Positions 1-11,648 of a DNA stretch of 11,648 nucleotides are shown one piece after another. The stretch comes from a virus. Taxonomy: Duplodnaviria; Heunggongvirae; Uroviricota; Caudoviricetes. The notes below the pieces were generated by a model, which did no database searches, had not been told where the DNA came from, and worked only from the letters and a program-made list of their open reading frames with translations. The DNA lies in IMG/VR virus record IMGVR_UViG_2671180963_000004, positions 1 to 11,648 of that record. One strand, written 5' to 3'. Position 1 is the first letter of the stretch. The number at the start of each line of letters is the position of its first letter. The position numbers were made by a program, and so were the translations under genes.

Positions 1-219
1 TCACATCCACATAATTTGCTGCCCTGACGGCAACGGGTGCGGCCTCACGGCGTGGACTTCTCCCGGCTTCACGATGTATCGCTGTACCGACTCATAAGTG
101 ATGAACGTGGCGCTGCAATTCACGTTCTGACACTGGTGATAACGCTCTTTTGTCGTGTCAGTGATATAGCGACTTGTACGCGCATGTGCGGCATGCTGGC
201 ATAAAGGACAATGAAACAT
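1..219 (-). CDS. ogr: Ogr-type late-gene transcription activator (72 aa zinc-finger protein)
   Basis: Translation from ATG at 217-219 gives MFHCPLCQHAAHARTSRYITDTTKERYHQCQNVNC..., with a C-x2-C-x22-C-x4-C zinc-binding pattern, and matches P2 Ogr as I recall it. SD-like GAGGTG lies 7 nt upstream. The ORF-track extension to 282 is probably not translated. Stop codon is at 1-3. Confidence 0.88.
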   Translation of the reverse strand: MFHCPLCQHAAHARTSRYITDTTKERYHQCQNVNCSATFITYESVQRYIVKPGEVHAVRPHPLPSGQQIMWM

Positions 220-253
220 CGCGAGCACCTCTTCCGGTTTTGTTGATGGTGCC

Positions 254-282
254 ATTTTAGTTAATTTATCCTTATAAAACAA
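254..282 (-). promoter_or_regulatory. Candidate sigma70 promoter for ogr (-35 TTGTTT at 282-277, 17-nt spacer, -10 TAAAAT at 259-254, read on minus strand)
   Basis: Hexamers read by eye in the AT-rich 80-bp spacer between the D remnant stop (301) and the ogr start (219). No other support. Confidence 0.3.
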
Positions 283-300
283 ACAGATAAAATAAAAACA

Positions 301-1179
301 TCACTCATCATCTTCTGTTTCGTACTCCACATCAGAAAGCCTGACCTCAAGCTCCAGGGACGTCGTGAAGCCGCTATTATTCAGAAAATGTGTCACCTTA
401 GTGATTGTCCAGTCCTGCTCGTCTATGACGCGCTTAAAGCCTGATACTTTGACCGGCGTTTCCGTGTAAATATCTGCCCGACCAGTAGCCAGACTGATGG
501 AGAACTCCGCAACGCCCCGTTGCAGCTTATCCCACTTCGCCTGAGCGGCGCGCATGGCCTGCGCTTTCGTGGCATATACCGTGGTCAGGGCAAAAACGTT
601 GTCAGCCTCACCTGCCATGTATTCACCTTCGCGCGCTTCCGGTACTTTTGGCGCTTTCTTCTGCGTGACCGGTTTCGCTTTCGGGTGCTCCAGTGCGCGC
701 AGGTGTTTCTCTTTCTTTTTGCGTTTCAGTTTTACCTTCTGCTTTTGTGGCTTCGGGTCTTTGGTGTGTAACCACTTTGCCGTTACGCCGGTATAGGCTC
801 CACGGTCAGCAATCGCAAAATGATGGCGGTCGCCGTCGCTGCGGGTTATGGTGACCTGCGGGATTTTTTTACCACTGGCCGTCACCCCCTGCCCCGCTTT
901 GAGAAACAACAATTTTCCCATTTTTACCGACACCTCACCGCCGTTGCGTTCAGCAAGACGGGTCAGGAATTTCGCATCGGACTCCTGCGACTGGTCGATG
1001 TGCGGGATTTTAATTCCGGCCAGTGACGGAGCGACACTGGCCTCCAGCCTGTTACGGGAGGCTATCGCCTCAACAATCGCACCGAGTGTGGTGTCATGCC
1101 AGGAGCCTTCCCGGCGGGAATTGAGCGTCCCGCGAAAATCTGCACTCCGGGCGCGGATGGTAATCCGGCCAGATGACCA
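301..1179 (-). pseudogene. D: Tail protein D (P2 gpD-like), 5'-truncated or frame-disrupted remnant
   Basis: Called ORF 301-933 begins at a GTG. Manual in-frame translation continues upstream as ...ITIRARSADFRGTLNSRREGSWHDTTLGAIVEAIASRNRLEASVAPSLAGIKIPHIDQSQESDAKFLTRLAERNGGEVSVKMGKLLFLKAGQG..., up to an in-frame TGA at 1180-1182. No plausible start codon with RBS; an N-terminal portion is missing. Confidence 0.7.
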
Positions 1180-1357
1180 TCAGCTCACGCTGGCTGAAAT
1201 TCTGGCGGTAGGCTTTCACCTCGGAAATGGTCTTACAGCCCCATGCGCTGATATAAAGGGAAATCAGTGTCGCCTTGCGTTCGGCGAGAATGGTTTCAAA
1301 GTCCAGCTCCTCGACCACATCCGGTGCGGGTAGCTGGTTCAGGTCGATAATCGGCAT
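1094..1357 (-). pseudogene. J: Baseplate protein J (P2 gpJ-like) N-terminal stub; only about the first 35 codons look J-like, remainder runs into D-derived DNA out of frame
   Basis: N-terminus MPIIDLNQLPAPDVVEELDFETILAERKATLISLY matches the P2 gpJ N-terminus as I recall it. The ORF is 87 codons, far shorter than a full baseplate J protein of roughly 300 aa. Sits 4 nt downstream of the W stop, as expected for the V-W-J order. Confidence 0.55.
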
Positions 1358-1361
1358 GGTT

Positions 1362-1709
1362 TCAACTCACAGGGATGGTTAACGAAAGTGGCTGGCCGGT
1401 GTCGTTGTGCTGGCCGGTTAACGTGACCGTCATTCGCCCGTCAAAACTGCGCGCCGTAGTGACGGATGACAGGGTGACGCGGGGTTCCCATTTCAGCACC
1501 GCCATGTAACAGGCGACCTTAATCTGCAACTCAAGCGCCTGGGTCTGCGGCTGGTCAATCATTGATGCCAGCAACGAGCCGTAATCACGACGCATCACCC
1601 GTGAGCCGACCGGTGTGCGCAGGATATCGCCGATACTCTGGCTGATATGCTCAAGGTCAGTGACAGTCAGGCCATCACTGCGATTCATTCCGAGATAACG
1701 TGCTGTCAT
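1362..1709 (-). CDS. W: Baseplate protein W (P2 gpW-like, 115 aa)
   Basis: Full-length 115-aa ORF, MTARYLGMNRSDGLTVTDLEHISQSIGDILRTPVGSRVMRRDYGSLLASMIDQPQT.... Its start overlaps the V stop by 4 nt (ATGA). Position V-W-J is syntenic with P2. Confidence 0.85.
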   Translation of the reverse strand: MTARYLGMNRSDGLTVTDLEHISQSIGDILRTPVGSRVMRRDYGSLLASMIDQPQTQALELQIKVACYMAVLKWEPRVTLSSVTTARSFDGRMTVTLTGQHNDTGQPLSLTIPVS

Positions 1710-2341
1710 AGAGGACTCCCGGTTGTGCCGCCGCTGTCTCCTGGGTGTTTGTGGGTATGCAGTACCTTACCGTTTGATGAGAGTTCACCGCCGGTGTGTT
1801 CAATGTTGCCGCGCATCGTCCCGCCCTTCTGCACTTCCAGCGTGCCGGTAATCAGCCTGTTGGTGCAGACCACCTCCGGTGTGTCCAGGGTGACGCGGGT
1901 TGATGCTTTCACCATGACCACCGGCACCGTGGCAGTAACAGAATCAGAAGCCGTCACGCTGACCGTTTTAATTCCGCTTACCGTGAGTGCACTGGTTTCG
2001 GGTTCATATTCAATCACCGCTCCGTCAGGGAAACGGATATGCAGGGCATCCGCCGACGCAGACGGCGCGGGGTTATCGCCGGAATAAATCCCCGGCAGAA
2101 CGAACGCCGTGTCGAGTTCACCGCCCACGGCCAGAATCAGCACCTGCTCCCCCACGGAAGGTGCCCACCATGTGCGCGAACGACCGGCACGATGGGTCAG
2201 CCACTGAAGCCAGTCAGTGCACATGCCGCCGGTCTGCACACGGCAGCGACCGGCGTTAAGGTCGGTTTCGACGACAAGGCCGGTGCGGATCATGTTGCGC
2301 AGTGCGCGCGCGAGTTCCTGAATATTTGCGAGAGTGTTCAT
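1706..2341 (-). CDS. V: Baseplate central spike protein V (P2 gpV-like, 211 aa)
   Basis: 211-aa ORF of the length expected for gpV. Lies between S and W in P2 order. Confidence 0.85.
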   Translation of the reverse strand: MNTLANIQELARALRNMIRTGLVVETDLNAGRCRVQTGGMCTDWLQWLTHRAGRSRTWWAPSVGEQVLILAVGGELDTAFVLPGIYSGDNPAPSASADALHIRFPDGAVIEYEPETSALTVSGIKTVSVTASDSVTATVPVVMVKASTRVTLDTPEVVCTNRLITGTLEVQKGGTMRGNIEHTGGELSSNGKVLHTHKHPGDSGGTTGSPL

Positions 2342-2407
2342 AACGGGAAGGATGCCGCCGGGTCATACCGGCGGCAATGTGACGATGAGGTGTCGGGAAT
2401 GGCACAA

Positions 2408-2860
2408 CTAACGGTCGAGGTGCGCCAGAATAATCTCTTCAATCATCTGCACATCCTCACCGGTAAAGCCGAGCAGGGGACGCGCCGGATAATCAATTTT
2501 CTTACCGTCTTTCCGGTTTTCTTCCGACAGACCGAACTGATGCACACTGGCGATTTTCGGTGACTTTCCGCCGTAAAATTCCATTGATGCCTGTTCCGGG
2601 CTGGCGCGGATATGCAAAAAACGACTGGTGATAAGTTTCGCAAACATTTTTCGCTTAACACGACCAGTCTTTTTTCTGGCGCTCTGCTGCTGGCGTGGCA
2701 CGTAGGGTGTGCCGTCCGGGGCTTTCTGTGCCATCACCCGACGCTGCTGACTCTGCCGCAGGCGCTTCGCCAGTTCGGCACTCAGTCGCCGACGCCCTGA
2801 CGGTGACAGCGATTCAATCAGTCCGGTCAGCCGGTCTTCAAAACGCTTAAACTCATTCAT
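2408..2860 (-). CDS. S: Tail completion protein S (P2 gpS-like, 150 aa)
   Basis: 150-aa ORF; start overlaps the upstream R-frame stop by 8 nt, as in a coupled late operon. Sits in S position upstream of V. Confidence 0.82.
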   Translation of the reverse strand: MNEFKRFEDRLTGLIESLSPSGRRRLSAELAKRLRQSQQRRVMAQKAPDGTPYVPRQQQSARKKTGRVKRKMFAKLITSRFLHIRASPEQASMEFYGGKSPKIASVHQFGLSEENRKDGKKIDYPARPLLGFTGEDVQMIEEIILAHLDR

Positions 2861-3059
2861 CCCACTTACTCACCAGTTCGCCATTGATATAAAGCTCCAT
2901 CGGGCGGGTGACCGGCTCCGGCGGCGGAGGTTCCGGGATATTCTTCACATGCAGCGCGCCGTCCACCTCACTGACCAGCGTGCGCTCGGTCAGCATCAGG
3001 CTGATGCTGATACAGGACAGGATTCGGGAAATAAACGGCTGGCTCGGCCAGGAGGTCAT
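2853..3059 (-). pseudogene. R: Tail completion protein R (P2 gpR-like), 3' fragment only (68 codons)
   Basis: 68-codon ORF ending 8 nt inside the S start, i.e. R position. Manual translation upstream of the ATG at 3057-3059 hits an in-frame stop at 3072-3074. Full-length gpR is roughly twice this size, so this is probably a 5'-truncated remnant. Confidence 0.55.
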
Positions 3060-3105
3060 CCGCTTTAAAAACTACTCACTGGACACTGACAACGGCTGAA
3101 CATCG

Positions 3106-3126
3106 CCGCCTGCGGGCGGCTTTTTT
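3106..3126 (+). terminator. Intrinsic terminator-like hairpin (GCCGCC-TGCG-GGCGGC followed by TTTTTT), plus-strand orientation
   Basis: Perfect 6-bp GC stem with 4-nt loop, followed directly by a T6 run. Oriented for rightward transcription, opposite to the flanking late genes. Consistent with a relic terminator from the far side of a deletion, possibly downstream of gene Q. Confidence 0.4.
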
Positions 3127-3268
3127 ACACCCCGTCATCACGCCCTCACACGCTCACCACCGCACAAAACACCCCGCAGACACACCAACGCCCCGGCGCA
3201 CAATCTAAACGCCATCAAGACGCGCTCAGACGCTGAAAAAATAAAATCAGCACCACCGCCAGCGCGCA

Positions 3269-3287
3269 GTGCTTTCCCCGCCTCGCC
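3269..3287 (-). other. cos: P2/P4-type cohesive end site (cos), 19 nt
   Basis: GTGCTTTCCCCGCCTCGCC at 3269-3287 is the exact reverse complement of the P2/P4 cohesive-end sequence GGCGAGGCGGGGAAAGCAC as I recall it. Orientation agrees with the reversed gene order. Confidence 0.8.
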
Positions 3288-3472
3288 CGCCCGCTTCATG
3301 GGGCATTTTTAATGCAGTTGCATGAACACTCCAAGAGCACACCATCGCTAGTGATAACTAACAATAAAAGCGACTTCTGACGCATGCAAATCCATGCACA
3401 TGATGGCATTTTTCATGATCTATGCGGTATGCTATCCGCTTCAATTTTTAACACTTGTTAAGGGAGCTAGAC

Positions 3473-4615
3473 ATGGACATTATTGATTTAAAATCTCAAC
3501 TAGAAAATGAAGATAATGCCAAGAAAAGAGCAGAGTTGCTTGCTCAGCTAGAGGTGATAAAGCAAAACGCTGAAGAGCAAATTCGTGCTGAGCAAAAGGA
3601 TGTGGATTTTGAGACCAAAGAATTTACCGTTGAGTTATTAGTTAATAAGTATCATAGCGGATTAGAGGATGATACTAACGAACTCTTTGTTCCTGATTAT
3701 CAAAGGGATTTTGTTTGGAGTGAAAAAAGACAATCAAGATTGATAGAGTCTTTGATTTTGGGTTTTCCTATACCATATATATTTACAGCAGATGTTCTCT
3801 CCGAAGATCCCGATTTAGATGGGCGAATTGAGATTGTTGATGGCTCACAGCGAGTTAGGACTATACACGCTTTTATCCAAAATGAATTAGTTTTACAAGA
3901 TCTGAAATCTTTAGACGCCCTTAATGGTTTCAAATTCCAAGATTTACCATTATCACGTCAACGTCGTTTCATGAGAATTCCTGTCCGCGTTATAGAATTG
4001 AGTTCTAAATGCAATGAAGAAACCCGTAGAGATCTTTTTGAACGTATTAACTCTGGCAGCGATATATTGAAAGATATGGAAGTCCGTAAAGGATCAGAAC
4101 TTGGTTCAACAAATTTATATACACAGGTTATTAAGCCATGCTCAACAATACCTAAATTTAAAGAATTAGCACCTTTATCTCAGACTAAAGAAAAACGAGA
4201 TGAACGGTTAGAATTTACATTAAGATTTTTTGCCTACTTAGATAAGTACAAGAACTTTGATCATTCCGTACGGGATTTTCTAAATGACTATATGTTAGAA
4301 AATCGAGATATAGACGAAACTAAACAAAACTCAATGAAACAAGAGTTTGCTAATGTTCTATCTTTTGTTGATAACTATTTCCCAGCAGGATTCAAGAAAA
4401 CTATTACTGCAAAATCTACACCTCGAGTTAGATTCGAATCTCTCGCTGTTGGCGCAGCACTTGCATTACGTGAAATCCCTGACCTTGTTCCCAAGAACTT
4501 GGATTGGCTAAGCTCAGAAGAATTCAAACGATTGACCACTTCAGACGGAGCTAATAGTCGCGTGAAGGTAATTGAACGAATTGAATATGTTCGGGATAAA
4601 TTATTAGAGGATTAA
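3473..4615 (+). CDS. DUF262 (ParB/GmrSD-N-terminal-like) domain protein, about 380 aa, no fused DUF1524/HNH nuclease domain
   Basis: Motifs DYQRDFVW (nt 3695-3718) and IVDGSQR (DGSQR at 3839-3853) are the hallmark QR..VW and DGQQR-type motifs of DUF262. Preferred start is ATG 3473, preceded by SD AGGGAG at 3461-3466; the ORF track uses TTG 3455. No (D/E)HxxP-type nuclease motif seen in the C-terminal half. AT-rich composition. Confidence 0.8.
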   Translation: MDIIDLKSQLENEDNAKKRAELLAQLEVIKQNAEEQIRAEQKDVDFETKEFTVELLVNKYHSGLEDDTNELFVPDYQRDFVWSEKRQSRLIESLILGFPIPYIFTADVLSEDPDLDGRIEIVDGSQRVRTIHAFIQNELVLQDLKSLDALNGFKFQDLPLSRQRRFMRIPVRVIELSSKCNEETRRDLFERINSGSDILKDMEVRKGSELGSTNLYTQVIKPCSTIPKFKELAPLSQTKEKRDERLEFTLRFFAYLDKYKNFDHSVRDFLNDYMLENRDIDETKQNSMKQEFANVLSFVDNYFPAGFKKTITAKSTPRVRFESLAVGAALALREIPDLVPKNLDWLSSEEFKRLTTSDGANSRVKVIERIEYVRDKLLED

Positions 4616-4616
4616 C

Positions 4617-5297
4617 ATGGATCGTTTTCGTGAGGATTTTGACGAAAGGTCAGGAGAGATCTTGGCCTATTTAGATCTTTTGAAATTTATTGAGTATGCC
4701 GGTGCAGAACTGATATCATCTGATGATAAAGAACATAAGTTCTCCATTACTGCTCAATCACGAAAAACTCTAAAGGGGGCAGTATATATTCTATTATATA
4801 ACCTCATTGAATCAACAATGAGAGAAGCTATCTGCCTTATTCATGAGACTATTTATGATAGAAACGTAGAATTTGACAAACTCAGGAAAAATATCAGGTC
4901 AGAAATATTAAAAAGATTAAAAAATGAATCTGTAAATATTGAAAGTTTAGTTAACCGTCTTACTAAAGGTATATCTTGCGGTATATCTTATGGCACTTTC
5001 AACAAAAAGAAAATATTCTCAGGAAATATTGATAGAGAGGAAATCAAAGAAAAATCGAAAATATATGGTTTTTCAACATATTCTGATTACACTCACACTA
5101 AACATGGTGAAAAATTAGCCACTGTCAAACAACATCGTAATGATTTATCTCATGGCAATGTATCATTTGCTGAGATTGGAAAAAATGTTTCATATCAGGA
5201 CTTAGAGAATATTTCATTAGAAGTAATCGCCTATCTTGATGCAATCGCGAATAATATAGAGCACTATATAAATAATAATGAATATTTAGAACAATAG
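4617..5297 (+). CDS. HEPN-like protein with Rx4H motif (putative RNase/nuclease effector), 226 aa
   Basis: ATG at 4617 is 1 nt after the upstream TAA (4613-4615), with SD-like GAGG at 4607-4610, indicating translational coupling. C-terminal region has KQHRNDLSHG, i.e. R174-x4-H179 (cgt 5136-5138, cat 5151-5153), the HEPN signature. Largely helical-looking, K/E-rich sequence. Pairing with a DUF262 protein resembles the MAE_28990/MAE_18760-type HEPN family naming as I recall it. Confidence 0.7.
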   Translation: MDRFREDFDERSGEILAYLDLLKFIEYAGAELISSDDKEHKFSITAQSRKTLKGAVYILLYNLIESTMREAICLIHETIYDRNVEFDKLRKNIRSEILKRLKNESVNIESLVNRLTKGISCGISYGTFNKKKIFSGNIDREEIKEKSKIYGFSTYSDYTHTKHGEKLATVKQHRNDLSHGNVSFAEIGKNVSYQDLENISLEVIAYLDAIANNIEHYINNNEYLEQ

Positions 5298-5303
5298 TAA
5301 TAA

Positions 5304-5320
5304 GGCCTGCAAAGCAGGCC
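5304..5320. terminator. Bidirectional terminator-like hairpin (GGCCTGC-AAA-GCAGGCC) between convergent genes
   Basis: 7-bp perfect stem with 3-nt loop in the 29-bp gap between the HEPN stop (5297) and the methyltransferase stop (5327). Flanked by T-rich sequence on plus (ATTTTAT) and A-rich on the other side. Confidence 0.5.
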
Positions 5321-5326
5321 ATTTTA

Positions 5327-6352
5327 TCATTCTAAATGGTTCTTGATTGATTGCCCAATTGCTTTTCCTAGTTCCACAGGAACAGCATTACCTATCATTT
5401 TCCCAATACTTCTTATAACAAACTTGTCTTTGTCTTCTACAAAGATATAATCCATCGGAAAAGTTTGCAATAAAGCAGCCTCTCTAAGAGAAATCGCTCT
5501 ATGCTGTTCTGGATGTCCAAAACGTCCATTTCCGAAACCATAACAAAGAGTTGTAATTGTTGGACTTGGCTTATCCCAAGACATGCGCCCATATACACTA
5601 GCATATCCTTTACCGCTAGATTTCATATGACAAGCAGCAATCAGCTCCTTCGGCCAGTCCTTCCATGTACCACCAGGAACAGAGTGTATAATTCTTTTTT
5701 TATTAATCGGATTTAATTTACTGGCTCTATGTAATATATCATTTGGATCTGTTTGGCCATCTTCTAACGGAGGAAGATTTCCTATTGCATCTCTAACTGT
5801 TTTCAAAATAACATCGTCACGTTTTACTAACTCAATCGCCCCCAATTTTGAAGCCAACAATACATGACGGGAACGGTTTTGTGGGATTCCATATTCGACA
5901 CAATCAACCTTCGACGCCCAAACATAATAGCCCAACTTTAACAATGAATTATAAAAATCATTATAAACTTTATGTTTAGTTACATCAGGAACGTTCTCCA
6001 TTGTTACGATTTCTGGAGATACTTCGCGAATTAAACGTTCGAACTCATAAAGAAGAGGCCATTTTTTATCATCAGCCTTATCTTTTCCTTGAGTATATTT
6101 TGAAAAAGGTTGGCAAGGTGCGCATCCTGCCAATACTTTTACAGACGCATCACCATAAAGCCTCAGCAGTTCCTCTTTTGTTACTTTAGCGATATCTTGC
6201 TCAATAAACTTAGATTTATTGTTTCTTTCATAGGGAAACCGACATTCCCCCTCAAGGTCTATGCCTGCAACGACATCAAGCCCCGCAAGCTGTAAACCAT
6301 GAGTTAATCCGCCAGCACCACAAAAAAGGTCTATCACCTTTACAGTCATCAT
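5327..6352 (-). CDS. DNA (cytosine-5)-methyltransferase, Dcm/M.HhaI-like, 341 aa
   Basis: Canonical C5-MTase motifs in order: motif I DLFCGAGG (AdoMet binding), motif IV GCAPCQPFS (catalytic PCQ, about 6110-6118), motif VI ENV (about 5990-5998), motif VIII QNRSRHVLLAS, and a C-terminal GNAVPV. SD-like GGAG upstream of the ATG at 6352. Confidence 0.9.
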   Translation of the reverse strand: MMTVKVIDLFCGAGGLTHGLQLAGLDVVAGIDLEGECRFPYERNNKSKFIEQDIAKVTKEELLRLYGDASVKVLAGCAPCQPFSKYTQGKDKADDKKWPLLYEFERLIREVSPEIVTMENVPDVTKHKVYNDFYNSLLKLGYYVWASKVDCVEYGIPQNRSRHVLLASKLGAIELVKRDDVILKTVRDAIGNLPPLEDGQTDPNDILHRASKLNPINKKRIIHSVPGGTWKDWPKELIAACHMKSSGKGYASVYGRMSWDKPSPTITTLCYGFGNGRFGHPEQHRAISLREAALLQTFPMDYIFVEDKDKFVIRSIGKMIGNAVPVELGKAIGQSIKNHLE

Positions 6353-6435
6353 TCACTCCAAATCTATACGATGCTCAGTATACATCCCTTTCTACAAAAT
6401 CTCGAGGCCTAACTTATAAACTCCTATTGATTGAG

Positions 6436-8535
6436 TTAACGCTTCACTGAGTTTGACTCTAATACTGTTGAGAATCCCGGCCACTCATCAGCGACCTGAT
6501 AAGTAAAATGTTTCCCGTCATAATTTACGGTCGCCCCACGCGCCAGCGCCTCAAGCTCCCATCGCTGCGGCCTGATACCGTTCTGAGCGAGGTCAACGCG
6601 GATACGGGTAATTTGCATTCGTTCCGACCGGGTCAGTCTGGCCGATGGTGCCATTTCATACTGTTTTAACGGGCTTCCGTTTCTCTGCTGACGATTTGGT
6701 GTTCTCAGCCCGTGTTTTAATGCGCCCCTGAGCGCCCTCACGACCTCCGGGTCATTCCATTCGATAACACCGTCATCAACCAGATTAAGCACTGCTGCGG
6801 CGTGCTCAGAAGGCGTGGGAGCCGGTAACGAAGTATCACCGCTGGTGAGCTTTCCACAGTTATTGACAGGACTCCGAGGCGCGGCGATGCCGCTTTTTAA
6901 AGTCAAAGGCTCAACGACCGGCACTTTCGGAACAATGCGCCAGTCCGTCGTTCTGGTGATATGAATATGACGCGCGCCGAGATGCGGCGCGTAAATGCCG
7001 ACCACTCTCTCGACTTCTTCCTCGTACTCGTTAACTTCATCCGACGGACTACGGGCGACCCTGACAGTCTGACAATCGCGCGGGACATTTGCCCCACCCT
7101 GCGCGCTGATATACAGCGCAAAATCACCACTGTCTGCGGCGGCGCGTGCAGCCTCGACGCGCTCGTCAAACTCATCAGCAATGCTGACGCCGCGAGGCAA
7201 TTTGCGTAGTTCACGGTAAGCCCCCATTGTCGGCAGGCCAACCGTTTTAAATTGCGGAATGCGCCACGTTGACGCCCATGCGGTAACAGCCGCGGCAGTA
7301 TCTTTCAGCGGTCTGCCGGTATCGTTATCGAGCTGCCCATCCAGTGCATAGCCGTCGATATTTTTTGAGATGTATTTCGCGATATACCCCGCAGCACCGC
7401 CCCGATTAAGATGTTTTGCCTGAAAACGGTTTCGCGCGGCTCCTCTTTCGTCGCCATCCTCTTTGAGCGCATAGCGACGCATGATTTCGATAATCTGGTT
7501 ACGCTGGCGTGGATTACAAAAAAACATCATATGCCAGTGCGGCGTTCCGTCGTGGTGTGGCTCGACGACTCGCAAACCGTAGACCTGTAAATCATTATCC
7601 TTGAATGCCGTGCGCATCAGGCTCCAGATACGGCAGAGATAACGCTGCGCATCCTTTGGATTAAATGCCTCATCGTTCCAGCCGTGATTTAGCTGGACGG
7701 TTTTACTTTCGCCTTTTCCAACCTGACGTGTCGGGTGATACTTTGACGGCGCGGTCAGCGTGATAAACATCCCCACATCACCCTCTGCGGCGGCGTAACG
7801 CTCAATACCGGCAATGGTGTTCATCAGCTCCATCCGGCGAATTTCAGGATTAGAAATACTGCCCATCACCTTACTGATAAGGTCGATGCGCTCGCCTGTT
7901 TCCCTGTTTTCGAGATCACACGATTTAAGAAATTCCAGATTTGCCTGGCGGCGTGCACGCACATCACGAATGGCATGTTTACTGGCATAAGGAGAACGGT
8001 CTTTATTGACCTCCCCGACAGCAATCAGTAACGCCTCATGCCAGCGCATACGCTGGCCTTTAAGCTGATGAGTCCACCACTCATCGTTAAACAGACGGGC
8101 AATGGCAGAATATGCCTGCCTCGTGGTCATCTGTCCTTTACGGTATTTTTTCCAGTAGAGAGGGGAAATATTGAAAGCACGTGCAGCGCCAGCAACATGA
8201 CCATAGAGGTGAGCCTGCGCCTCATCCGTAAACAGCGATTCTTTTTCGCCATGCGCATCCACCCATGCATCGCAGAGTTCCTCATACATCATGAAAAGCT
8301 GCGATGAGATACGGGCGGCAAACTTTTTCAGCTCCTTGTCATTCATTCCAGGCAGGCGCGCATAATGGTCACGCTCTGCCAGAAACAGCAACGACGCGTC
8401 GGTGTTCATTTCATGGCGCTGATTCACGCGCTCAATGCGCGGCCATAAGCGACGCTGAAAAGTGGATGTGAGGAAATAAAACCCGTGCAGCAGGTATTGG
8501 CGCATCACACTCTTCGCAAACCAGCGAAGAAACAC
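6436..8535 (-). CDS. A: Replication initiation protein A (P2 gpA-like rolling-circle HUH endonuclease)
   Basis: HUH motif in PHHDGTPHWHMMFF and tyrosine pair in GYIAKYISKN, typical of P2 A-family initiators. Called start 8533-8535 is a GTG with an in-frame stop 9 nt upstream (8545-8547); an in-frame ATG at 8503-8505 (MRQYLLHGFYF...) is an alternative start. Coding region overlaps the upstream zinc-finger ORF. Confidence 0.85.
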   Translation of the reverse strand: MFLRWFAKSVMRQYLLHGFYFLTSTFQRRLWPRIERVNQRHEMNTDASLLFLAERDHYARLPGMNDKELKKFAARISSQLFMMYEELCDAWVDAHGEKESLFTDEAQAHLYGHVAGAARAFNISPLYWKKYRKGQMTTRQAYSAIARLFNDEWWTHQLKGQRMRWHEALLIAVGEVNKDRSPYASKHAIRDVRARRQANLEFLKSCDLENRETGERIDLISKVMGSISNPEIRRMELMNTIAGIERYAAAEGDVGMFITLTAPSKYHPTRQVGKGESKTVQLNHGWNDEAFNPKDAQRYLCRIWSLMRTAFKDNDLQVYGLRVVEPHHDGTPHWHMMFFCNPRQRNQIIEIMRRYALKEDGDERGAARNRFQAKHLNRGGAAGYIAKYISKNIDGYALDGQLDNDTGRPLKDTAAAVTAWASTWRIPQFKTVGLPTMGAYRELRKLPRGVSIADEFDERVEAARAAADSGDFALYISAQGGANVPRDCQTVRVARSPSDEVNEYEEEVERVVGIYAPHLGARHIHITRTTDWRIVPKVPVVEPLTLKSGIAAPRSPVNNCGKLTSGDTSLPAPTPSEHAAAVLNLVDDGVIEWNDPEVVRALRGALKHGLRTPNRQQRNGSPLKQYEMAPSARLTRSERMQITRIRVDLAQNGIRPQRWELEALARGATVNYDGKHFTYQVADEWPGFSTVLESNSVKR

Positions 8536-8620
8536 CGCAATGTTTTACCCTTGCCGCGTTAATCTGGCGCTCCAGTAATTCAGCCTGTTGTTCCTGAATA
8601 AAATCTACGTTGTCCGGCAT
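8432..8620 (-). CDS. Small TraR/DksA-like zinc-finger protein (possibly degenerate), 62 aa
   Basis: Contains CEECDAPIPAAR, resembling the C-x2-C-G-x-P-I-P-x-x-RR core of TraR-family phage zinc fingers. The expected second CxxC pair is absent in all three frames; the tail is VLFPHIHFSASLMAAH. Overlaps the A start region by about 70-100 nt. Confidence 0.45.
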   Translation of the reverse strand: MPDNVDFIQEQQAELLERQINAARVKHCGVSSLVCEECDAPIPAARVLFPHIHFSASLMAAH

Positions 8621-8622
8621 TA

Positions 8623-8925
8623 TCAGCTCCTTTTATCGTTAAGTTTCCTGGATACATCAGCGCAATAACTGGCGAGTTCTGTCGTTAATTTTGTCAGTTC
8701 ATCCACTGAGGAAATTTGCTTGTGGAACACAGCGCGTTTAACAAGTAAATTGACCACATCAGACAGGAGGTTTAATTCATTCTGATAAATCGCGATAACA
8801 GATTCAGTTATGTCGCGTTTTTCTTTATCAAGACAAAGTTGAATAAGAGACAAATCACCATTTTCCATAACGGCGATTTTTAAGGCGTTATTCAGTAATA
8901 CAACTGAATGAGAACAGGACATCAA
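8623..8925 (-). CDS. Hypothetical small early protein (100 aa), in the B-to-A interval
   Basis: ORF in the same orientation as the early operon; start overlaps the upstream ORF stop by 4 nt (8922-8925). No recognisable motif. Confidence 0.5.
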
Positions 8926-9146
8926 AGCACCTCCCCGCGAGACAATCCGATATTGTGAAATTTTTCCGACTCCTGACTGAGCAGCTCGACTATCTCCACG
9001 CGGGATAACTCCGCCTTTGTGATATGGCGAATCATGGCGTCAAGATGAGAAGAAAAGCGCGTCGCAGCGTCGGCCTGTGCTTCGGTTCTGGCCTGTTGCA
9101 GCAGTAATGCGTATTTACCGCACTGATTTTCAGAAACTGTATGCAT
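8922..9146 (-). CDS. Hypothetical small early protein (74 aa), downstream of B
   Basis: ORF in early-operon orientation, coupled by overlap to the next ORF. No recognisable motif. Confidence 0.5.
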
Positions 9147-9209
9147 GACTTTCTCCAGGCAAAAAGAAGCCCCGCACGATTAAGTGCGTTAAAAACTCTG
9201 GTTAATTAT

Positions 9210-9710
9210 TTAATGCAAATATTGCTCTGGTTTTACCGACGTCAGAATTGTCGGTGCATACTCAAACAGACTGAATAGTTCACGTAATGCACGGAATAAA
9301 GCATCACGCCAGTAACATGACTCTTCATTAATTCGCCAGTATGGCTGATTGAATTCTTTTTCAGTCAATCCGGCATGCATAAATAAAGTACGACGCTGAC
9401 TGACTGTTAAAAAACTAATATATGCATACTCACTTGCGCCAACCTGACGGCGTTTTGAGAATGCCCCACGCAATTCATCAATTGCACAAACCAGCCGTTC
9501 ACGTTCGACGTCGTTCATTTCTTCAAAACGCATCGTTGCGTGACGTTGTTTTAACTGCGCATGAAAGCAAACTGTTAGCCGTTCGCGCTCCATCATCTGA
9601 TTATAATAATCACATGTATCCTGCCAGCGAGGGACGGCAAGATGCTTACCAATTATCCGGCGCATAGCTGCTGGCTGTTTTTCGACGAGATTGAGCGTCA
9701 TCACTGTCAT
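9210..9710 (-). CDS. B: Replication protein B (P2 gpB-like, 166 aa, helicase-loader-type early protein)
   Basis: 166-aa ORF of the length and position (downstream of cox and a small ORF, upstream of A) expected for P2 B. Confidence 0.75.
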   Translation of the reverse strand: MTVMTLNLVEKQPAAMRRIIGKHLAVPRWQDTCDYYNQMMERERLTVCFHAQLKQRHATMRFEEMNDVERERLVCAIDELRGAFSKRRQVGASEYAYISFLTVSQRRTLFMHAGLTEKEFNQPYWRINEESCYWRDALFRALRELFSLFEYAPTILTSVKPEQYLH

Positions 9711-9877
9711 TTCCAGACCCTCCGGCTTTTCAGAAAGGTCAGAGCCTTTTTTAACGGACTCTGTTTTTTGGTGCGGATAATGATTCCCTTACGCCCCTTA
9801 CCGTGGGTGATGGTGAAGTCAATCGCCCTGGGGCTTTCGTTACGCAGTAACTGAGCAATACAACGCGGTTCACTCAT
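9707..9877 (-). CDS. Small early ORF between cox and B (orf78-like position), about 56 aa
   Basis: ORF track starts at ATG 9902-9904, which would overlap the cox 3' end by 25 nt. In-frame ATG at 9875-9877 lies 2 nt after the cox stop and is preferred. Stop overlaps the B start (ATGA-type). Confidence 0.45.
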   Translation of the reverse strand: MSEPRCIAQLLRNESPRAIDFTITHGKGRKGIIIRTKKQSPLKKALTFLKSRRVWK

Positions 9878-9879
9878 AA

Positions 9880-10152
9880 TCACAACCCCATCCACAAAAG
9901 CCATGCATCACGCTGTTCAACTGGTCGGTTATAAAACGCCTCTCGTACAGCGCGATTAAACTCTGGAATGAAAACCCACTTCTCACCGACACGAGCGTTC
10001 GGCTTACTTGGATCACGAAGCTCAATAACTGGCAATTTATTCTCTTTTACCATCTTGACTACAGCCGTTTCTGGCTTACCAAGTAACTCTGCAAACTTAA
10101 CCGTATGTACCGCATCAATCGGGTACTGAATCACATAGTCATTGACTTCCAT
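9880..10152 (-). CDS. cox: Cox (P2-type excisionase/early-promoter regulator), 90 aa
   Basis: 90-aa ORF, first gene of the minus-strand early operon and divergent from C. Region KLPVIELRDPSKPNARVGEKWVFIPEFN...RDAWLLWMGL resembles P2 Cox as I recall it. Confidence 0.78.
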   Translation of the reverse strand: MEVNDYVIQYPIDAVHTVKFAELLGKPETAVVKMVKENKLPVIELRDPSKPNARVGEKWVFIPEFNRAVREAFYNRPVEQRDAWLLWMGL

Positions 10153-10197
10153 TGATTAGCCCTTTTTGCTTTCGTGTTACCCTTATTAGATCCAGCC

Positions 10198-10227
10198 CCT
10201 TCTAGGTCGCCCCTGTCCTTTCTAGGG
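10198..10227. repeat. Direct repeats CCTTCTAGG / CCTTTCTAGG (10198-10206 and 10218-10227): second candidate operator or Cox-box pair
   Basis: Near-identical 9-10-bp direct repeats spaced about 21 bp apart (two helical turns) in the cox-C intergenic region. Confidence 0.3.
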
Positions 10228-10248
10228 ACTGGCTAACACACTCAAAAG

Positions 10249-10292
10249 GTCACCAATACACAACCTTTTGACGGGAATATAAGTCACCAATA
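10249..10292. repeat. Direct repeats GTCACCAATA (10249-10258 and 10283-10292) flanking the candidate Pe -10: candidate repressor (C) or Cox operator half-sites
   Basis: Exact 10-bp direct repeat, 34 bp apart, one copy inside the Pe spacer and one just downstream of the predicted start site. Confidence 0.35.
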
Positions 10293-10304
10293 GGTTACTG
10301 TCAA
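10276..10304 (-). promoter_or_regulatory. Candidate early promoter Pe (minus strand): -35 TTGACA (10304-10299), 17-nt spacer, -10 TATATT (10281-10276)
   Basis: Near-consensus hexamers with 17-bp spacing, read on the minus strand. Lies on the C-proximal side of the cox-C intergenic region, consistent with the face-to-face Pe/Pc arrangement described for P2. Confidence 0.5.
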
Positions 10305-10598
10305 ATGCAGACATTCGAAAAACTGAAAGCGATTAGGAAAGCAGAAGGCTTAACACAGGCGAAATTCAGCGAAATTAGCGGGATAGCTCTAGGAACAGTC
10401 AAAAATTACGAAAGTGGGCATAAAGACCCTGGTCTCAGCATCGTTATGCGAGTCACAAATACGCCTTTATTTAAAAAATATACGCTCTGGTTAATGACTG
10501 GTGATACGTCACCACAAGCTGGTCAGATCGCGCCGGCTCTCGCACACATTGGGCAAAAACCAACAGAATCAGACCGCTCCGAAAAACAGACTGGTTAA
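10305..10598 (+). CDS. C: Immunity repressor C (P2 C-like, 97 aa, HTH)
   Basis: N-terminal helix-turn-helix region LTQAKFSEISGIALGTVKNYESG. C-terminal KYTLWLMTGDTSPQAGQIAPALAHIGQ closely resembles P2 C as I recall it. Divergent from cox and upstream of int. Confidence 0.82.
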   Translation: MQTFEKLKAIRKAEGLTQAKFSEISGIALGTVKNYESGHKDPGLSIVMRVTNTPLFKKYTLWLMTGDTSPQAGQIAPALAHIGQKPTESDRSEKQTG

Positions 10599-10667
10599 CA
10601 CTCTATAAACATTACATTTTCACCATTTGTTACCAAGATGGTGAATACAGCGTCAGAGGGCTTTCTT

Positions 10668-11648
10668 ATGTCAATTAAGAAGCTCGATGATGGACGCTAT
10701 GAAGTGGACATTAGACCTCGCGGTCGCGACGGAAAACGCATCCGCAGGAAATTTGAAAGAAAAGCTGAGGCTGTAGCATTTGAGCGATACACAATCGCCT
10801 ACGCCAGCCAGAAAGAATGGGCAGGTCAGCGAGCAGATCGCAGAACTTTGAGTGAGTTGCTGGACATCTGGTGGAAATATCACGGGCAAAACCACGAGCA
10901 TGGAACAAAAGAGTTTAATCATCTGCTCAAAACCATCAGCGGCATAGGTGATATACCAGTGAGCCGGATGAGCAAAAGAGCTTTGATGGATTATCGTTCC
11001 ATGCGACTACGAAATGGTATCAGTGCCGCAACGATAAACCGTGACATGTACCGATTATCCGGCATGTTCACAAAATTAATTCAATTGGATGAATTTTCCG
11101 GGCAACACCCAATTCACGGACTGCCGCCACTGGCGGAGGCCAACCCTGAAATGACGTTCCTGGAAAAAGCAGAAATCGAAAAACTGTTAAATGTTTTGGA
11201 TGGTGATGACTTACTTGTCGCACTTTTATGTCTGAGCACTGGAGGAAGATGGACGGAAGTTGCCACGCTAAAACCAGCACAGATTACAAATTGCAGGGTT
11301 ACCTTCCTGAAAACCAAAAACGGTAAAAAGCGAACCGTGCCGATTTCTGAGGAACTGGAGAAAAAAGTTAAAGAGGAGGCCAGCGCTAAATTATTCAAAG
11401 TTGATTATGAGAAGTTTTGCGGGATTTTACGCAGAGTGAAGCCAGATATACCACCCAATCAGGCAACCCACATCCTGCGGCATACATTCGCAAGCCATTT
11501 CATGATGAATGGGGGCAATATAATCGCACTGCAACAGATTCTGGGACATGCGAGCATTCAGCAGACGATGGCCTATGCGCACCTTGCGCCTGACTACCTG
11601 CAAAATGCCGTCGCGCTGAATCCTCTAAAAGGCGGAGTGACGTTATAA
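10668..11648 (+). CDS. int: Tyrosine integrase (P2 Int-like), about 326 aa
   Basis: MSIKKLDDGRYEVDIRP... matches the P2 Int N-terminus as I recall it. C-terminal catalytic region HILRHTFASHFMMNGGNIIALQQILGHASIQQTMAYAHL carries the H-x-x-R box and Tyr of tyrosine recombinases. Preferred start is ATG 10668 with SD AGAGGG at 10655-10660; the ORF track starts at 10638. Stop is at 11646-11648, the window edge. Confidence 0.9.
   Translation: MSIKKLDDGRYEVDIRPRGRDGKRIRRKFERKAEAVAFERYTIAYASQKEWAGQRADRRTLSELLDIWWKYHGQNHEHGTKEFNHLLKTISGIGDIPVSRMSKRALMDYRSMRLRNGISAATINRDMYRLSGMFTKLIQLDEFSGQHPIHGLPPLAEANPEMTFLEKAEIEKLLNVLDGDDLLVALLCLSTGGRWTEVATLKPAQITNCRVTFLKTKNGKKRTVPISEELEKKVKEEASAKLFKVDYEKFCGILRRVKPDIPPNQATHILRHTFASHFMMNGGNIIALQQILGHASIQQTMAYAHLAPDYLQNAVALNPLKGGVTL

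Follow-up and report, generated by a model that had tools for sequence, protein, structure and literature searches.

A C5-cytosine methyltransferase is co-inherited with a DUF262-HEPN gene pair in a mobile three-gene cassette of a P2-like prophage: a putative defence system with restriction-modification logic

The analysis concerns a gene for a C5-cytosine DNA methyltransferase (MTase) and its two neighbours within the 11,648-nucleotide stretch formed by positions 1 to 11,648 of the IMG/VR record IMGVR_UViG_2671180963_000004, the whole of which is referred to here as the window. This DNA is a P2-like prophage of Enterobacterales, in which the order is ogr, a gpD fragment, W, V, S, a low-GC island, gpA, cox, C and int. 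The island, with a G+C fraction of 0.31-0.41 as compared with 0.50-0.60 in the flanks, contains exactly three genes:

3473..4615, plus strand: DUF262 protein (ParB-like nucleoside triphosphatase, NTPase) with a C-terminal helical, ParBDB-like DNA-binding part, 380 amino acids (aa); a putative sensor or switch.
4617..5297, plus strand: MAE_28990-family HEPN protein, 226 aa (PF18737, 2.8e-29; PF18735, 8.5e-9); a putative RNase effector.
5327..6352, minus strand: C5-cytosine DNA MTase, 341 aa, recognized by open reading frame (ORF), Pfam, NCBIfam, PADLOC and motifs.

An earlier note, made from the letters of the window, had described a complete C5-MTase carrying all the diagnostic motifs, placed tail to tail with a DUF262-HEPN pair inside an AT-rich island and lacking a classical restriction endonuclease (REase) beside it, and each part of this description was borne out. 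The HEPN gene ends at 5297 and the MTase stop codon occupies 5327-5329, leaving a spacer of 29 bp between the convergent genes. The island was searched for an extra small gene or hidden controller, and none was found; it holds no REase domain recognizable by Pfam or NCBIfam and no additional ORFs.

By family cutoffs and motifs, the predicted enzyme is a full-length C5-cytosine MTase. Pfam PF00145 matched it from end to end (E = 4.4e-58; 197.7 bits against a cutoff of 22; profile positions 2-323 of 324), NCBIfam TIGR00675 scored 128.7 bits against a cutoff of 100.65, and the PADLOC models MTase_II and DrmMII gave E-values of 1e-88 and 4.4e-91, respectively. RefSeq begins the protein at the second ATG, yielding 340 aa under the accession WP_001697730.1, 'DNA cytosine methyltransferase'. 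Motif I (D8-L-F-C-G-A-G-G15), motif IV (P79-C80-Q81), motif VI (E119-N120-V121), motif VIII (Q158-N-R160-S-R162), motif IX (R290-E291...Q296-x-F298-P299) and motif X (G321-N322-A-V-P325) are all present, and all six were invariant across 10 orthologues. When compared with an allele from E. coli at 89% nucleotide identity, the ratio of nonsynonymous to synonymous substitution rates (dN/dS) was 0.06 for the MTase, 0.08 for the DUF262 gene and 0.06 for the HEPN gene, at a dS of about 0.5; this value is as low for the MTase as for both of its neighbours. The gene is under purifying selection, and a decaying MTase was ruled out.

The mechanically called ORF of the DUF262 gene starts at a TTG at 3455, and the RefSeq start is the ATG at 3473, which lies behind the sequence AAGGGAG. 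Pfam recognized only a GmrSD_N domain in the product, the C-terminal half of which is helical; it detected neither a DUF1524 nuclease domain nor any other nuclease domain, and the AlphaFold 2 (AF2) model shows no evident nuclease fold. The motifs QRxxxW, DGxQR and FxxxN are intact, and the best structural matches were BrxU and SspE. Among PADLOC models, NsnA matched residues 17-380 (2.1e-54) and PD-T4-2_A (PDLC04027) matched residues 79-377 (5.3e-35), together with a weak, partial match to one REase_II model (3.2e-5). The HEPN gene starts 1 nt past the DUF262 stop, and the two are therefore probably translationally coupled. The HEPN site, R174-N-D-L-S-H179 (Rx4H), was kept in 28 homologues. 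The HEPN protein drew no match from any PADLOC model up to E<=5; a PADLOC-style scan is therefore unlikely to report the cassette as a defence system. Sequence and profile searches of the PDB returned no relatives of either the DUF262 or the HEPN protein.

Co-occurrence of the three genes across genomes, which the earlier note had named beforehand as a test, was followed first from the HEPN gene and then from the MTase. For the HEPN-centred sample one genome per species was scanned, and the best 80 of 388 relatives were analysed; both this and the MTase-centred sample of 80 loci are best-scoring subsets that include near-duplicates, with ORFs called mechanically, and trees were built by neighbour joining from p-distances. 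A DUF262 gene lay directly upstream of the HEPN gene in every locus (80/80), and an orthologous MTase (E-values of 1e-115 to 1e-209) adjoined the pair in 33/80. The presence of the MTase maps to one clade of the DUF262 tree, which extends across Gammaproteobacteria, Acidobacteria and Cyanobacteria and includes Tatumella, a Vibrionaceae genome, Pseudoalteromonas, two Pyrinomonadales and many cyanobacteria; within this clade the pattern breaks only at one truncated contig and in two cases of decay. Pairwise distances were closely correlated between MTase and DUF262 protein (r=0.96) and between MTase and HEPN protein (r=0.85). Across the MTase clade, conservation was 0.80 in the target-recognition domain versus 0.75 in the catalytic core.

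The arrangement of the genes is preserved along with their association. MTase and HEPN genes converge in 31 of the 33 genomic loci, in 20 of these 31 with an overlap of exactly 4 bp between the 3' ends of the ORFs, and in the two Pyrinomonadales loci the MTase precedes the other two genes on the same strand; among viral loci, 50/53 are convergent and the rest co-directional, again with the MTase first. The two cases of decay, Aphanizomenon (L008) and Dolichospermum (L009), are natural MTase-loss derivatives that sit on a long branch of the DUF262 tree; L009 retains only MTase residues from about 248 to 330, and L008 retains none. The sister clade, which is entirely or almost entirely cyanobacterial, carries a bare DUF262-HEPN insert between housekeeping genes (acnB, clpB, secA, cobN). 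An MTase of another type was considered as the partner in this MTase-less clade and rejected; the flanks are housekeeping genes, only L079 adjoins an N6/N4 MTase, and L066 lies near a HaeII system.

The MTase-centred sample consisted of 80 IMG/VR contigs, the MTases of which are 54-100% identical to the window enzyme. DUF262-HEPN adjoined the MTase in 53/80 of these viral contigs. In 16/80, the place beside the MTase is instead taken by a GHKL-ATPase protein of ~660 aa; all five of the GHKL partners tested (5/5) scored 618-778 bits against the equivalog cutoff of 550 for NF050001, 'BbrUII/HgiDII family restriction enzyme', and the one that was searched in PADLOC matched a type II REase model at 1.9e-94. 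Another GHKL module stood beside the MTase in 3/80, and 7/80 had further modules (a NERD-UvrD helicase in three, an SNF2 helicase in two, a smaller GHKL protein in one and a large unmatched protein in one), with a Vsr mismatch endonuclease in 5 of these 7. Only a single MTase appeared solitary (1/80, L141). Vsr was found in 10 of the 27 viral contigs without DUF262-HEPN, and its position beside relatives of the window MTase implies real production of 5-methylcytosine (m5C).

MTases paired with DUF262-HEPN and those paired with an REase interleave on the MTase tree, as in L107/L109, L110/L132 and L160/L131. REase-paired MTases are 55-61% identical to the window enzyme, and identity in the target-recognition domain is ~0.60 in both partner groups. 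We reasoned from this interleaving that the attack module beside one conserved modification module has been swapped repeatedly; since the partner types are interleaved and the family is almost never found alone, DUF262-HEPN can be read as filling the 'R' slot of a cassette resembling a restriction-modification (R-M) system. Of the two roles that the earlier note had left side by side, that of partner in a three-gene system is thus the one favoured, by co-inheritance with DUF262-HEPN over three phyla and in unrelated prophages (33/80 loci seen from the HEPN gene, 53/80 seen from the MTase); that of an independent orphan MTase was rejected on the strength of the same co-inheritance, the single solitary relative and the dN/dS of 0.06. 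The near-absence of co-occurrence that the earlier note had named as refuting is clearly not what these loci show.

At L121, L122 and L130, where a third kind of partner adjoins the same MTase family, a 730-aa protein with two HATPase domains is accompanied by two ORFs (~400 and ~220 aa) that had no Pfam or PADLOC match, an architecture that could represent a further uncharacterised restriction-like module. At L134, L137, L142, L144, L145 and L159, MTase and Vsr are followed by a helicase or a large protein, except that no Vsr was found in L144; the NERD-nuclease/UvrD-like fusion measures 534-570 aa, the SNF2-family helicase 1046-1132 aa, and the L159 protein, which has no Pfam match, 1062 aa.

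Neither the window enzyme's matches in the PDB (HaeIII, HhaI and DNMT1), which are too distant to give its target, nor the names of its relatives identify the sequence that it methylates; M.HgiDII (CAA38941) is absent by name from the top 120 MTase homologues, all of which bear generic names. HgiDII and BbrUII are of the SalI-isoschizomer type, and SalI and HgiDII are sensitive to methylation. The window MTase is probably M.HgiDII-like, as judged from its relatives, and GTCGAC is its predicted target, because M.HgiDII, an experimentally characterised m5C MTase, methylates GTCGAC (PMC5867850) and because relatives of the window enzyme pair with HgiDII-family REases.

The cassette recurs well beyond the window. 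In an intact relative, the prophage of E. coli CFSAN064036 (L001), the same three genes stand between the portal gene and gpA. The cassette was present in 9/5426 complete E. coli genomes, in eight at >=99.6% nucleotide identity and in one at 89%, and the same MTase cluster was found on 754 contigs. At the same P2 hotspot, other E. coli hold a second, diverged allele whose MTase is 72% identical; phage P24B2 carries the same allele group, with DUF262 and HEPN proteins ~45% and ~30% identical, respectively. In this Peduovirus (NC_049387, L083) the MTase is frameshifted within a run of eight C at about 2362-2369, which may reflect an error of sequencing or a tract prone to slippage. A phase-variable MTase was considered for the window and rejected; the C8 tract is absent there, and that position bears no homopolymer. 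An intact 375-aa allele (P0163) occurred in 234 blocks of the assembly collection, the four examined being E. coli-type P2-like prophages.

Outside P2-like elements, a lambdoid prophage of Klebsiella pneumoniae (L169-L171) bears the cassette at 85% identity near RusA, antiterminator Q and an HTH_ParB gene, and the cluster of its DUF262 protein spans 487 blocks of the collection. Moraxella phages Mcat24-32 carry a DUF262 gene, and in Mcat29, the only one examined, the full cassette adjoins the repressor and encodes an MTase 59% identical. The cassette is also found on cyanobacterial chromosomes. It moves, then, as a three-gene unit between unrelated elements, and other Enterobacterales, such as Salmonella, probably carry it as well. 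In diverged cassettes the MTase is the most conserved of the three genes; the highest conservation in the MTase is typical of R-M pairs.

The trio as such is not new. In Table 1 of Anantharaman et al. 2013 (Biol Direct 8:15; PMC3710099), a HEPN/ParB/DNA-methylase trio is listed on computational grounds, and HEPN RNases are proposed as effectors coupled to R-M and restrained until needed. The locus in the window belongs to this MAE_28990 HEPN-ParB-methylase neighbourhood, having a HEPN protein with Rx4H, DUF262 in the same operon and a convergent C5 MTase 29 bp away. The entry itself, however, is one table line from comparative genomics, which reports no experiment and says nothing on the family of the MTase, its target or the clade structure; what goes beyond it here is the clade-specific coupling, the M.HgiDII-like type of the C5 MTase and the swapping with HgiDII-type REases. 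In the literature that was searched, no experimental work on these three genes together came up, and Rousset 2022 makes no mention of DUF262.

Among characterised systems, a distant relative is PD-T4-2 (Vassallo et al. 2022), a two-gene DUF262 + HEPN system of E. coli ECOR65 directed against T4, which, cloned with no MTase, protects E. coli K-12 against T4. Both are E. coli defence cargo borne on prophages or other mobile elements, and in both a DUF262 protein is followed by a small HEPN protein; the window DUF262 protein matches PD-T4-2_A, as noted above. PD-T4-2 itself, however, measures ~1.5 kb and was cloned without an MTase, whereas the window cassette includes a co-evolving one, and the window DUF262 protein scores higher on NsnA than on PD-T4-2_A. 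Membership in PD-T4-2 was therefore only half supported; PD-T4-2_B was unmatched, and the HEPN proteins share only the Pfam family PF18735 (8.5e-9).

Three further systems were compared and set aside as classifications. HgiDII/BbrUII R-M loci have related MTases with an alike target-recognition domain and the same convergent or co-directional M-R layout, often with Vsr in the REase loci, but the window lacks the GHKL-type REase and has DUF262 + HEPN in its place; with no cognate REase of DNA-cleaving fold adjoining the MTase, the locus is not a classical type II R-M system. The window DUF262 protein has the architecture of NsnA from Menshen (NsnABC), namely ParB-DUF262 followed by a helical DNA-binding domain. 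Menshen was nevertheless ruled out, since the NsnB ABC-ATPase (AAA_15 + DUF3696) and the NsnC inPIN-nuclease are absent and the downstream gene encodes the 226-aa HEPN protein. About 28% of Menshen operons neighbour R-M, BREX or methylases, and it has been suggested that DUF262 targets non-modified DNA (PMC12065111). With GmrSD, BrxU and SspE the window protein shares the N-terminal DUF262 fold with QRxxxW, DGxQR and FxxxN, and it differs in lacking DUF1524/HNH, in measuring 380 aa as against about 560-770 aa, and in having a separate effector; a GmrSD-type, type IV enzyme attacking modified DNA was ruled out as a class by the missing DUF1524. In SspE, the sensing of a DNA modification falls to the DUF262 domain, whose NTPase activity turns on the nuclease domain; a like description is given of GmrSD (PMC10952713, PMC12065111).

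The earlier note had called the pairing of an MTase with GmrSD-like enzymes, which normally attack modified DNA, an unusual combination. This was overstated; the protein has no DUF1524 and is like NsnA and PD-T4-2_A rather than GmrSD, and an MTase with DUF262 is not unusual because SspE, DndB and the Menshen-methylase neighbourhoods join DUF262 sensors with self-made modification.

We lean, by a modest degree, towards the view that MTase, DUF262 and HEPN form one mobile three-gene defence cassette that operates by R-M logic. According to this proposal, the MTase, as an M.HgiDII-like m5C enzyme with GTCGAC as its predicted target, would mark resident DNA; the DUF262/ParBDB protein, an NTPase and DNA-binding switch, would check DNA for that mark; an encounter with unmarked incoming DNA would release the HEPN protein; and the HEPN protein, with its intact Rx4H site, would most likely cut RNA and so stop the infected cell (abortive infection). 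The mark would then act as protection, as in R-M systems, with the MTase shielding host DNA from the DUF262-HEPN pair, and that pair would take the place held in sister cassettes by the BbrUII/HgiDII-type REase. Of this picture, the domains with their intact motifs, the co-inheritance and the exchange of modules are observed; the target, the trigger by unmethylated DNA, the cutting of RNA by HEPN and the abortive outcome are inferred. The broader form of the idea, in which a self/non-self methylation readout is wired to an abortive sensor and RNase, and in which the MTase serves as a 'modification hub' for REase, DUF262-HEPN, NERD-helicase and SNF2 modules, is more tentative, and we would put it somewhat short of an even chance.

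Several observations weigh against the proposal. The MTase-less cyanobacterial sister clade indicates that the DUF262-HEPN core needs no MTase intrinsically, and PD-T4-2 is active without one (Vassallo et al. 2022). In P24B2, DUF262 and HEPN genes stand beside a frameshifted MTase, and L008 and L009 have full-length DUF262 and HEPN proteins with DGxQR and Rx4H intact, which speaks against strict self-attack. These three losses are hard to square with a strictly lethal attack on self, except where a different MTase protects the site or where the loss or error happened only lately. The opposite polarity may also hold, with the mark sensed as a licence by analogy with SspE. As for the target, specificity can shift between enzymes at ~55-61% identity, which weakens the prediction of GTCGAC, and the shortage of this site in the prophage is no more than suggestive; the window has 0 against 2.1±1.4 expected, and L001, a 33-kb locus made up of the intact prophage and about 9 kb of flanking chromosome, has 2 against 7.5±2.9, neither being significant.

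The alternative that best withstands the evidence, although we consider it unlikely, is that of a modification-licensed sensor of the SspE/Dnd kind, in which DUF262 would bind m5C, have its NTPase tuned by the mark and stay poised until some other cue fires the attack, so that the MTase would be needed without being an antidote. The exchange of partners tells against it; the same MTase family swaps with a bona fide REase family, which is simplest if both read the mark as 'self, do not attack', and the convergent layout together with the co-directional variants in which the MTase comes first fits R-M regulation.

It is quite unlikely, in our estimate, that the island holds two independent cargos, a methylation-free defence like PD-T4-2 and an MTase on its own, which would shield prophage or host DNA from SalI/HgiDII-type restriction or act epigenetically. 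The activity of PD-T4-2 without an MTase, the sister clade without one and the tolerated losses in L008 and L009 would all suit such an arrangement, as would the frequent stacking of unrelated systems in P2 hotspots (PMC9519451). Against this stand the clade-specific presence of the MTase and its co-divergence with DUF262 at r=0.96 over three phyla, a conserved tail-to-tail junction in which the stop codons often overlap, joint transfer into P2-like, lambdoid and Moraxella phages, equal purifying selection on the three genes, and a family in which only 1/80 is solitary. Very unlikely is a DNA-cutting R-M system, in which DUF262 would be an endonuclease or nickase acting at unmethylated sites with HEPN as a second-line suicidal RNase (the Anantharaman 2013 model), since in GmrSD, BrxU and SspE DUF262 is the NTPase or sensor and the cutting is done by DUF1524, which is absent here along with any Pfam nuclease domain or any nuclease fold evident in the AF2 model.

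If the proposed R-M logic holds, the cassette would be a compact, 3-kb case of methylation-based self-recognition driving an abortive RNase response, and a link between two large classes of defence, R-M and abortive infection (Abi)/HEPN. It would also supply a testable ligand for DUF262-only sensors (PD-T4-2, Menshen, Dazbog), namely a site, probably GTCGAC, that lacks methylation. The cassette is widespread, being found in P2-like and lambdoid prophages of E. coli and Klebsiella and in many cyanobacteria; it could bar transformation and phage therapy in carrier strains, and pre-methylation of DNA could bypass it.

Between the portal gene and gpA, P2-like phages have what is described as their tin/old defence hotspot (PMC9519451). 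In the window, the borders of this hotspot and the regulatory candidates around the MTase are as follows:

3269..3287, unstranded: the 19-mer GTGCTTTCCCCGCCTCGCC, at the left border of the hotspot.
5304..5320, both strands: the GC-rich hairpin GGCCTGCAAAGCAGGCC, a candidate bidirectional terminator from a terminator scan, between the convergent stop codons.
6377..6405, minus strand: TCGAGA-17-TATACT, a weak sigma-70-like promoter candidate, matching at 9/12 positions.
6436..8535, minus strand: P2 gpA replication endonuclease with its normal 5' end missing (Pfam Phage_GPA, 2.5e-124), at the right border of the hotspot.

We take GTGCTTTCCCCGCCTCGCC to be the reverse complement of the 19-nt cohesive end of P2 cos, and on that assumption the island would lie directly between cos and gpA. 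The hairpin in the MTase-HEPN spacer has a stem of 7 bp, and a further strong terminator-like hairpin is found at 3105-3120. The promoter candidate sits in the 83-bp gap that runs from the gpA stop to the MTase start, with a match count not above the shuffled expectation.

When compared with the intact prophage of L001, that of the window is defective. An 8.5-kb deletion fuses gpR to the end of the portal gene, with a junction at about 3000-3012 and an overlap of 12 bp; a second deletion, of 594 bp, has cost gpA its 5' end and the prophage a DUF5405 gene, with a junction at about 8484-8489; and at least one further deletion lies between tail genes (1159-1255), with gpD reduced to a fragment (301-933). 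The defence cassette is intact and 100% identical to the L001 copy despite these deletions, and a deleted prophage with an untouched cassette looks like a domesticated remnant; the deleted form was absent from all of the complete E. coli genomes compared. In the E. coli GN04592 prophage (L082), which carries the 89% allele, the MTase and gpA are separated by a DUF3850/ASCH gene (12524-12976), and upstream of gpA there is a PAPS-reductase-family gene (15264-16271); both may be additional accessory cargo.

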